From an archaeon GW2011_AR15 (lineage in GTDB: Archaea; Nanobdellota; Nanobdellia; Woesearchaeales; GW2011-AR15), in contig CP010425.1 in the NCBI GenBank assembly GCA_000830295.1, positions 576,001-640,000 of the forward strand: 64,000 nt of DNA, in the 5' to 3' direction. Positions 4,451 to 42,478 of the stretch are shown one piece after another. The translations under genes were made by a program, and so were the position numbers. The notes under the pieces were generated by a model. That model saw only the letters and a list, made by a program, of their open reading frames with translations. It ran no database searches and was not told the DNA's origin. Every line of letters starts with the position of its first letter. Position 1 is the first letter of the stretch.

Positions 4451-4551
4451 TAATGGAGGCGTAGTATAACCAAGGCCAACTGATAATGTCGGTTGACACC
4501 ATAGTGGGTTTCGCTACGCTCAAGCCCACATAACGGGGACGTAGTACAACC
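4451..4551 (+). mobile_element. Two-hairpin element copy A with duplication of the tRNA-Trp 5' end
   Basis: TAATGGAGGCGTAGTATAACC (4451-4471) vs TAACGGGGACGTAGTACAACC (4531-4551), 17/21 identical; between them CAACTGA..TCGGTTG and GTGGGTTT-CGCTACGCTC-AAGCCCAC hairpins. Confidence 0.75.
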
Positions 4552-4663
4552 TGGCTAGTATAAGCGGCTCCAGTCATGGAGCGATGAGGCGTAAGCCGAT
4601 GACATGCAGATAAAAGTTCCGGGAAGTAACCGCTGGATCGGGGTTCAAATCCCTGCGTCCCCA
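4535..4663 (+). tRNA. tRNA-Trp(CCA) with 55-nt intron (4574-4628)
   Basis: GGGGACG/CGTCCCC acceptor, AGCGG/CCGCT anticodon stem, CT-CCA-G loop, TTCAAAT T-loop. Confidence 0.92.
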
Positions 4664-41015: not shown

Positions 41016-41166
41016 ACGGTAGTGGTCTAACGGCATGACACGACCCTCCCAACCTTTTAAGAAAAGGTTGGCGAAAACAGGTGGGTTTCTTCACCTTGTT
41101 CGTCAAGCCCACATCAAAAAAAGGGAGAGTGAGGTCGATATCCGGGTTCAATTCCCGGCTACCGTA
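41016..41166 (+). tRNA. tRNA-Gly(CCC) with 80-nt intron/insertion (41052-41131)
   Basis: ACGGTAG/CTACCGT acceptor, CGACC/GGTCG anticodon stem, CT-CCC-A loop, CCGGG-TTCAATT-CCCGG. Confidence 0.85.
41049..41122 (+). mobile_element. Two-hairpin element copy F inside the tRNA-Gly anticodon loop
   Basis: CCAACCTTTTAAGAAAAGGTTGG-CGAAAACA-GGTGGGTTTC..TCAAGCCCACAT-CAAAAAAA, colinear with the reverse complement of copy C. Confidence 0.8.
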
Positions 41167-42304: not shown

Positions 42305-42359
42305 GCGGAGGTGCGTTGAAACCGGAAACGGTTCACTGACCTCCTCAAAACGCGGAGGT
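42305..42359 (+). repeat. Hairpin insert with 8-bp duplication of the tRNA-Leu 5' end
   Basis: GCGGAGGT at 42305 and 42352; GGAGGT..ACCG-GAAA-CGGT..ACCTCC stem; AAAA before the second copy. Confidence 0.6.
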
Positions 42360-42478
42360 AGCGAAGTGGCCAAACGTGGCAGACTCAAGAATTTGAGTGA
42401 TGAGCCGAGAGGCGATGACATACTATTGGGCCATCTGCTCCCTTAGTGGGTTCGCAGGTTCGAATCCTGTCCTCCGCA
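42352..42478 (+). tRNA. tRNA-Leu(CAA) with 43-nt intron (42390-42432)
   Basis: GCGGAGG/CCTCCGC, GCAGA/TCTGC, CT-CAA-G, long variable arm, BHB (CTCA:TGGG, CCA bulge). Confidence 0.93.

Follow-up and report, generated by a model that had tools for sequence, protein, structure and literature searches.

Why does the intron of an archaeal leucine tRNA gene carry a stretch antisense to the anticodon of its own tRNA, placed directly upstream of what resembles a kink-turn? The question is raised by the tRNA-Leu(CAA) gene of archaeon GW2011_AR15 (Woesearchaeales), the genome of which is a single contig (CP010425.1) of 1.158 Mb with 42% G+C. We analysed a stretch of 64,000 nucleotides of this contig (positions 576,001 to 640,000), hereafter the window; coordinates refer to the window unless the genome is named. 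It is likely, judging from sequence comparison, that the intron is a natural half-mer guide, i.e., a single-motif box C/D guide of the C′/D′ type, that directs 2′-O-methylation of C34 (Cm34) in its own tRNA while the latter is still unspliced. This reading draws on the anatomy of the intron, its conservation and covariation in relatives, a fixed register between guide and motif, the predicted fold of the precursor, and three box C/D proteins encoded in the genome.

A putative antisense guide next to a single kink-turn motif

The tRNA-Leu(CAA) gene occupies 42352..42478 of the + strand and scores 44.3 bits with the Rfam tRNA model. It is missed by ARAGORN with default settings and recovered with aragorn -i, as Leu(caa) i(39,43); the latter gives 39 tRNA genes in the genome, most of them intron-bearing. 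The intron (42390..42432, + strand) is 43 nucleotides (nt) long, follows G37 (position 37/38), and is flanked by the two strands of the anticodon stem, GCAGA and TCTGC.

Read from its 5′ end, the intron starts with AAT and continues with the hexamer TTGAGT (42393..42398, + strand), which is antisense to nucleotides A31–A36 of the anticodon arm (42383..42388, + strand). Sequence, fold, and covariation mark this hexamer as the putative guide, positions 7–2 of a spacer numbered backwards from the following box. Spacer position 1, an unpaired G (42399), and a D′-like box, ATGA (42400–42403), come next (together 42399..42403, + strand); the box is positioned to form the non-bulged strand of a kink-turn, with its GA as 2n and 1n. 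A capped hairpin, GCC-GAGA-GGC (42404..42413, + strand), would be the C stem of the kink-turn, as judged from its closing pair and from covariation in relatives. It is followed by a C′-like box, GATGA (42414–42418), and CAT (42419–42421), which together (42414..42421, + strand) would supply the bulge L1–L3 (N-R-U), the sheared GA, and positions 3b and 4b. ACTAT, TGGG, and CC complete the intron. The base five nucleotides upstream of ATGA is G, and it lies opposite C34 (42386), the predicted 2′-O-methylation site. The antisense element is therefore placed as in box C/D guides, directly upstream of a D/D′ box with the target at the fifth nucleotide (N+5).

The same scaffold is present in the tRNA-Trp(CCA) gene (4535..4663, + strand), which has orthologs in the relatives and is detected but mislabelled by aragorn -i. 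The module (4577..4605, + strand) lies in a 55-nt intron (4574–4628) and consists of the guide TGGAGC (4577–4582), a single G, ATGA (4584–4587), the hairpin GGC-GTAA-GCC (4588–4597), GATGA (4598–4602), and CAT. The guide is antisense to G31–A36 (4567–4572) in the register seen in Leu, and N+5 is C34 (4570). The window contains the core pattern GATGAG..CGATGA twice, where 0.04 occurrences are expected, and a count of two is reached in 1 of 100 shuffles. Genome-wide, GATGA-hairpin-GATGA has four matches, three of which lie inside tRNA introns: those of Trp, Leu(CAA), and elongator Met (genome 869719-869844, − strand; L245, orthologs L097-L116). The Met module, with the guide TATGAGT, a single G, ATGA, GCC-GTTA-GGC, and GATGA, is antisense to A31–A37 and again places N+5 on C34.

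The module was not found in the intron-bearing C34 tRNAs Gly(CCC), Gln(CUG), and Lys(CUU) of the same genome. Looser versions of the scaffold are present in tRNA-Cys(GCA) and tRNA-Leu(UAG). The original prediction had given the intron its exact coordinates, had pointed to the scaffold shared with Trp, and had counted from the box to C34 in both introns; each of these holds, and the scan of C34 tRNA introns that it proposed added the copy in elongator tRNA-Met.

Covariation of the putative guide and its target across the order

The three pre-tRNAs were compared by BLAST with 40 relatives of the same order, and matches were obtained in 33, 33, and 20 of the 41 genomes. Genes were extracted with a regular expression for the D-loop and anticodon; 11 missed genes were added by locus coordinates after inspection, and non-tRNA matches were excluded. 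The resulting set comprises 67 genes (30 Trp, 20 elongator Met, and 17 Leu(CAA)). Leu matches in G004 and G012 lie outside any 37/38 intron and were reclassified as lacking an intron. Only structural rules were used to locate the kink-turn, namely NNGA, the innermost closed hairpin, and then N-R-TGA.

Modules are present in 63 of the 67 genes (Trp 29/30, Met 20/20, Leu(CAA) 14/17). Guide positions 2–7 are paired with nucleotides 31–36 in 360 of the 378 cells of these 63 modules (95%), and position 5 faces C34 as a G:C pair in 61 modules. All six positions are paired in 51/63 modules when the shift is 0 and in none of the 63 at the other five shifts tried (−4 to +1), indicating a fixed register. 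The pair between nucleotide 31 and guide position 2 shows compensatory changes, A:U to C:G and back in Leu and G:C to C:G and back in Trp. The guide is kept with covariation in 12 of the 14 intron-bearing Leu(CAA) orthologs; the Trp module of G010 has one mismatch.

In an independent scan, one genome per GTDB species was searched with the Leu pattern, leaving nucleotide 31 free. At least 119 loci were obtained, and 118 were parsed. Among the matches listed, nucleotide 31 is complementary to guide position 2 in 102/102 loci in tRNA context (97 A:T and 5 C:G), compared with 7/16 chance matches outside tRNA context. Also among the matches listed, 80 titles comprise Woesearchaeota (32), Nanoarchaeota or Nanoarchaeia (15), ‘uncultured Methanosarcinales’ from third-party annotation (TPA) assemblies (19), other archaeon (3), and bacteria (11). 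The ‘Methanosarcinales’ label is not trusted, because record L133 has the same intron as G002, a relative of the same genus. L133, L202, and other public records of metagenome-assembled genomes titled ‘uncultured Methanosarcinales archaeon’ or ‘Candidatus Aminicenantes bacterium’ carry a Woesearchaeota-type tRNA-Leu with the module, and such records are probably mislabelled or mis-binned contigs.

The 5′ element of the 63 modules is ATGA in 42, TTGA in 10, CTGA in 3, and another NNGA in 8; the 3′ element is GATGA in 40, AATGA in 15, TATGA in 6, and NGTGA in 2. The GA dinucleotides and N-R-U-G-A were demanded by the parser, so their invariance in 63/63 is not independent evidence. The hairpin is closed by a G-C pair in 61/63 modules, and pairs 2 and 3 covary (C-G, G-C, U-A, and so on). 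Position 3b·3n is U·U in 29/63 modules, and 4b·4n is a standard pair in 36/63, compared with a shuffle mean of 23.4 (0/2000 shuffles attain 36). Taken at the level of sequence, this combination of 3b·3n and 4b·4n is the pattern of a box C/D stem II. At spacer position 1, 59/63 modules have an unpaired G; in box C/D ribonucleoprotein (RNP) structures, as described in part of PMC9670817, spacer nucleotide 1 is unpaired and nucleotides 2–11 are paired.

These features fit a kink-turn in which the capped hairpin would be the C stem, NNGA the non-bulged D′-type strand, N-R-U the bulge, and the following GA the C′-type partner in sheared pairs. The C-type (RUGAUGA) and D-type (CUGA) boxes, which form the tandem sheared G·A pairs of a C/D kink-turn, are found in degenerate form, with AUGA as the commonest 5′ box and the last three C′ positions variable. 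Because GAUGA...GAUGA is symmetric, two kink-turn registers are possible in the genome of GW2011_AR15, and the relatives discriminate between them. A U4-like register, with the hairpin as the non-canonical stem, was rejected, as the G that it requires after the hairpin is U or A in 23/63 modules, while N-R-U-G-A is kept. The kink-turn pattern also matches the 5′ domain of 23S rRNA in the same genome, a region with known kink-turns.

The original prediction, which was staked on the guide covarying with nucleotides 31–36 of its own tRNA in homologs, is supported at the level of sequence, down to compensatory changes in both Leu and Trp. Its description of the hairpin needs to be narrowed: compensatory stem changes and a GNRA loop are seen between the Leu and Trp introns of GW2011_AR15, but the sequence and length of the loop vary in relatives. 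Apart from the module, many orthologous tRNA genes of the relatives contain extra insertions, in the T-loop after GGTTCGAA and in the D-arm (L039, L046, L052, L054, L073, L078, L083, and L092), and Leu of G027 has an insertion between nucleotides 30 and 31 that repeats the anticodon plus its antisense.

The distribution of the module is patchy. The Leu pattern is found in 49 of 301 high-quality genomes of a phylum sample, a count that includes the unpublished genome G266; by hand count, 48 belong to the same order and 1 to other orders, and control matches number 0. In a sample of 151 genomes, the Met pattern is found in 18, all of the same order, and the Trp pattern in 66. Such patchiness would be expected of a selfish or mobile intron cassette, in which the kink-turn hairpin serves to keep the excised (circular) intron stable and the antisense stretch is a by-product of insertion or duplication. 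The occurrence of one scaffold in five tRNA families of a single genome points the same way, as does the RNA of the tRNA-Met intron of Nanoarchaeum equitans, described in parts of PMC3491384 as stable and, in RNA-seq, abundant. A by-product should decay, though, and compensatory changes keep the complementarity across an order-level clade; mobility is, moreover, compatible with guide function. We therefore regard a purely selfish cassette as very unlikely.

Nucleotide 39, precursor folding, and splicing

Two further tRNAs of GW2011_AR15 have a single kink-turn in the intron (loci L247-L307): tRNA-Cys(GCA) (genome 769787-769896, − strand) and tRNA-Leu(UAG) (genome 1111523-1111659, + strand). 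The module is present in 18 of 21 Cys genes. Guide positions 2–6 there pair with nucleotides 38–40 and, on the other side of the 3′ splice junction, with the two terminal intron bases, in 89/90 cells; 17/18 genes pair perfectly when the shift is 0, and none of the 18 does at the other shifts between −2 and +2. Three of the pairs show compensatory changes (position 3 with intron base −1, A:U/C:G/G:C; position 4 with nucleotide 38, G:C/U:A; position 5 with nucleotide 39, G:C in 12 and C:G in 6). For tRNA-Leu(UAG), the module is present in 6/14 genes, 5/6 of which pair perfectly; the guide of GW2011_AR15 itself can also pair with an intron-internal ACACU, giving an alternative hairpin there.

All 18 Cys and all 6 Leu(UAG) modules place N+5 on nucleotide 39. 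In Haloferax volcanii and Pyrococcus abyssi, the guide in the Trp intron directs methylation to two sites, nucleotides 34 and 39, according to passages of PMC4033218, PMC11408192, and PMC4090602. The same cassette has most likely been retargeted, to C34 of Trp and elongator Met and to nucleotide 39 of Cys and Leu(UAG).

The predicted folds of the precursors accommodate both elements. The precursors of Leu (−46.2 kcal/mol), Trp (−45.5 kcal/mol), and Met (−48.6 kcal/mol) all have, in both the minimum-free-energy and the centroid fold, a hairpin of guide and anticodon with a 4-nt loop, next to the kink-turn hairpin, and the 5′ splice site lies within the loop of the guide:anticodon hairpin. The intron also has the bulge-helix-bulge expected at 37/38, with a 4-bp central helix between nucleotides 32–35 and intron positions −3 to −6 and with 3-nt bulges. 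In Leu, TGGG (42427..42430, + strand) provides the intron strand of this helix and pairs with C32 to A35 as C32-G, U33·G, C34-G, and A35-U. Among the orthologs (Trp, Leu, and Met introns of loci L037-L119), 32:−3 and 33:−4 are almost always paired, and C34 faces A in 24/27 Trp and 6/14 Leu introns, which on sequence grounds is a relaxed bulge-helix-bulge motif. In these 24 Trp introns, the strand of the central helix near the intron 3′ end has GAAG opposite CUCC, with the conserved A facing C34; the wobble base would accordingly be unpaired in the splicing conformer too.

The guide pairing and the bulge-helix-bulge pairing are mutually exclusive, so the guide conformer must yield to the splicing conformer. 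We propose the following order of events. Before splicing, UUGAGU of the intron would pair with nucleotides 31–36, leaving the 5′ splice site in the 4-nt loop. The single kink-turn directly 3′ of the guide duplex (D′-like NNGA, capped hairpin as C stem, C′-like N-R-U-G-A) would then be bound by L7Ae, and the RNP would assemble and transfer a methyl group to C34. The anticodon loop would finally re-pair with UGGG at the intron 3′ end, and the splicing endonuclease would excise the intron from the bulge-helix-bulge so formed. The guide may act in cis, as drawn here, or in trans as the excised intron. A second tRNA-Trp(CCA) gene, intronless, lies at genome 331291-331361 (+ strand; L246:92-162; Rfam 59.6 bits) and has an identical G31–A36 target; should the guide of the Trp intron work in trans as well, this tRNA would offer it a natural substrate.

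The same conflict between conformers could serve another end. The module may be an L7Ae-bound folding or timing element, which masks the anticodon loop or the splice junction and orders intron removal with no methyl transfer. The exclusion of the bulge-helix-bulge helix by guide pairing and the placement of the 5′ splice site in the hairpin loop of the favoured fold suit such a role, and in the Cys class it is the 3′ splice site that is buried in a helix. The short duplex and the single motif suit it as well, and many tRNAs of the lineage have several introns, which would need ordered removal. Pairing between intron and anticodon is, furthermore, general in eukaryotic pre-tRNAs. A timing element does not predict, however, that the fifth position falls on nucleotide 34 or nucleotide 39 in five tRNA families. 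Together with the wobble-target and fibrillarin evidence given below, this makes a pure timing element unlikely in our view.

Other introns and hairpins of the genome show further features. tRNA-Gly(CCC) (41016-41166), where C34 is present and the kink-turn module absent, has an unusually long intron (80 nt); this intron and that of tRNA-Thr(UGU) elsewhere in the genome have a hairpin in common, AACCTTTTAAGAAAAGGTT. The intron of tRNA-Tyr(GUA) (genome 1088361-1088483, + strand) contains CTGA...GATGA flanked by the 6-bp self-complement GCTTAT/ATAAGC; the element looks kink-turn-like, and its tRNA target is not obvious. Trailer hairpins of tRNA-Arg and tRNA-Thr have tandem GA without a 3-nt bulge and were set aside as a different motif. 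The loose kink-turn pattern TGAG..SCNATGA was discarded as a module detector, since it gives many matches in every relative; a loose scan of the GW2011_AR15 genome gave 131 matches against 28 in the reversed control, apparently mostly in coding DNA.

Methylation proteins, known guides, and the weight of the evidence

The proteins of a box C/D RNP are encoded in the genome of GW2011_AR15, i.e., fibrillarin (250.7 bits), Nop5 (163.9 bits), and L7Ae (102.8 bits). At 316 aa, Nop5 is short, yet its coiled coil is retained; it hence offers no protein-level explanation for the single motif. The fibrillarin (219 aa) and Nop5 genes are non-adjacent (genome 303093-306707; L003); between them lies an open reading frame of 179 aa, which looked HD-domain-like by eye. 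A strict genome scan gave no canonical dual-guide C/D small RNAs (sRNAs), and a looser one of crudely defined non-coding DNA gave eight candidates, none convincing; the coding mask being crude, these scans do not establish that dual-guide sRNAs are absent.

Fibrillarin is present in 111 genomes of the 151-genome sample. In a hand cross-tabulation, the Trp module is found in 62/111 fibrillarin-positive and 4/40 fibrillarin-negative genomes, and fibrillarin in 18/18 Met-module and 25/26 Leu-module genomes. Two of the four fibrillarin-negative Trp modules (G124 and G163) look spurious; the other two genomes (G054 and G113) belong to a genus with fibrillarin in 7/9 sampled genomes. The co-occurrence points in the direction of a fibrillarin link, but the test is weak, because the fibrillarin-negative genomes are clustered and the events are accordingly few. 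The rarity of the module without fibrillarin is not predicted by a timing element either, as L7Ae is a ribosomal protein and expected everywhere.

Known box C/D guides act on the same positions. According to parts of a 2021 review (PMC7994747), the wobble bases of tRNA-Leu(CAA), Leu(UAA), Met, and Trp are the targets of four C/D sRNAs in three Pyrococcus species, and only the Trp guide, sR50, is given there as intronic; P. abyssi sR47 methylates C34 of tRNA-Leu(CAA) in vitro (passages of PMC3413156). Trp, elongator Met, and Leu(CAA) are thus three of the four Pyrococcus wobble-target tRNAs, which supports the assignment of the modules as C34 guides; a timing element would not predict this match. 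The stand-alone guides of this kind (Pyrococcus sR47 for Leu-CAA and sR49 for Met; Haloferax sR-tMet) share the C34 targets, but they are separate genes with a bipartite architecture and guides of ~12 nt that act in trans, as passages of PMC7994747, PMC3413156, and PMC2584109 describe them.

The euryarchaeal pre-tRNA-Trp intron guide (H. volcanii; Pyrococcus sR50) is intron-borne, antisense to its own tRNA, and directed by N+5 to C34 (and nucleotide 39). It depends on L7Ae, Nop5, and fibrillarin and acts before splicing, as we infer for the introns described here. In contrast to these, it has two motif pairs and two guides per 60-105-nt intron (parts of PMC2584109 and PMC4090602), whereas the present introns of 43-55 nt have one kink-turn, one 5–7-nt guide, and one target each, and their carriers add Leu(CAA), Met, Cys, and Leu(UAG). 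The relevant passages of Grosjean et al. 2008 (PMC2584109) call the Trp guide ‘always intronic’ and that for Met ‘always exonic’, and those of two reviews, of 2014 and 2024 (PMC4090602, PMC11408192), name Trp alone as an intron-guide tRNA.

In N. equitans, the 66-nt intron of tRNA-Met gives rise to a stable RNA with box C/D-like elements and a GC hairpin, which Randau 2012 proposed as a potential guide (parts of PMC3491384). It resembles the Met module in its DPANN host, in coming from the intron of the same tRNA, and in having a box D and a mutated box C with the hairpin. It differs, by description, in being a ‘potential’ guide only, with neither a target nor Leu, Cys, or Trp counterparts given in the parts of PMC3491384 that describe it. 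Single motifs are otherwise known from engineered RNAs. The Ye laboratory describes natural guides as carrying two motif sets and reports that engineered half-mers with a single kink-turn or kink-loop are, with L7Ae, efficient and N+5-specific on 8–11-bp substrates (passages of PMC9670817). Its monopartite MMG4 and MMG5 (PMC9670817; Yang et al. 2020 cited there) have the order found here, a 5′ guide and then a single kink-turn or kink-loop, are L7Ae-dependent, and follow N+5; unlike the introns, they are artificial, with a 12-nt guide and 8–11-bp duplexes formed in trans, as given in the same passages. In a full-text literature search, guides located in introns of tRNA-Leu or tRNA-Cys did not turn up, and neither did a single-motif guide of natural origin, though further papers could exist; this agrees with the original prediction, which knew of no precedent for either a Leu or a single-motif version.

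Several points weigh against the Leu(CAA) intron as a half-mer guide. In most modules the D′ box reads AUGA instead of CUGA, and conservation of the C′ box does not extend to its second half (UGA). There is one C/D-type motif only, in place of paired C/D and C′/D′ motifs; a second RUGAUGA/CUGA was not found in the Leu (43 nt) or Trp (55 nt) introns or the flanking exons. The guide duplex has 5–7 contiguous bp where about 8–12 bp are expected, and the shortest duplex tested in the passages of PMC9670817 is 8 bp. The M. jannaschii-based single-site RNP of Hardin and Batey is described in part of PMC1635284 as active but non-specific. Rfam yielded no matching family, and in E-value mode the Leu locus gave only the tRNA and two chance plastid matches.

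The relatives contribute further points of this kind. Leu(CAA) of the close relatives G003, G004, and G012 lacks the 37/38 intron, and a stand-alone Leu(CAA) guide was not found above control in these three genomes. The Leu intron of G026 has a kink-turn-like motif with only 4 bp of complementarity, and that of G031 a kink-turn-like motif with no guide complementarity. The Leu module is therefore dispensable, given the missing introns of the former three genomes and the missing full complementarity of the latter two. A U·U mismatch at U36 is present in 8/20 Met guides, which read UUUGAGU, the same as the Leu(CAA) guide, and a 1-nt insertion in the Trp module of G018 shifts the register. The fibrillarin-negative genomes are concentrated in one family (13/16) and in other orders (24/34), so that phylogeny confounds the co-occurrence.

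The short duplex may be compensated by intramolecular pairing. Since neither the bipartite architecture nor the usual guide length is present, the Leu(CAA) intron is best described as a variant of the box C/D guide and not as a plain member. The rival explanations account for parts of the anatomy, but not for an N+5 register that falls on two classic target positions.

The same holds for a protein-only route. In eukaryotes, the same nucleotide of the same tRNA, C34 of pre-tRNA-Leu(CAA), is modified to 5-methylcytidine (m5C34) by Trm4/NSUN2, and the intron is required. This dependence is established for yeast and human (passages of PMC4033218 and PMC4090602), and one could suppose that the intron-anticodon helix is likewise recognised here by a protein-only, intron-dependent C34 modification to which the kink-turn is unrelated. 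The eukaryotic enzyme, however, acts without RNA partners, methylates the base and not the ribose, and involves no kink-turn. Such a route would leave unexplained the kink-turn with its fixed 5-nt register, the nucleotide 39 class with its variable target base (C or G), and the fibrillarin link, and we consider it extremely unlikely.

Beyond the single locus, we tentatively suggest, at somewhat less than even confidence, that ribose methylation of the tRNA anticodon arm in Woesearchaeota is run by intron half-mer C/D cassettes, with one kink-turn and a 5–7-nt guide, that act on their own precursors. Copying and retargeting would have spread the cassettes to at least five tRNA families, with C34 or nucleotide 39 as the target, and they may be the main, perhaps the only, fibrillarin guides in these reduced genomes. 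They would then offer a picture of a minimal or ancestral C/D guide, along with a selective reason for the persistence of these introns.

Descriptions of natural box C/D guides give them a bipartite architecture, and the need for two motifs is debated, single-site RNPs being non-specific in one account and half-mers fully specific once L7Ae is bound in another (parts of the papers cited above). If the guide reading is true, this debate could be tested directly on a natural half-mer that is found clade-wide and whose guide is very short and intramolecular. Intron-borne self-guiding would be widened from one tRNA (Trp) to five, by a guide that is reprogrammed through few base changes. Retention of tRNA introns in DPANN archaea would be tied to a function, and tRNA modifications would become predictable in organisms that resist culture.

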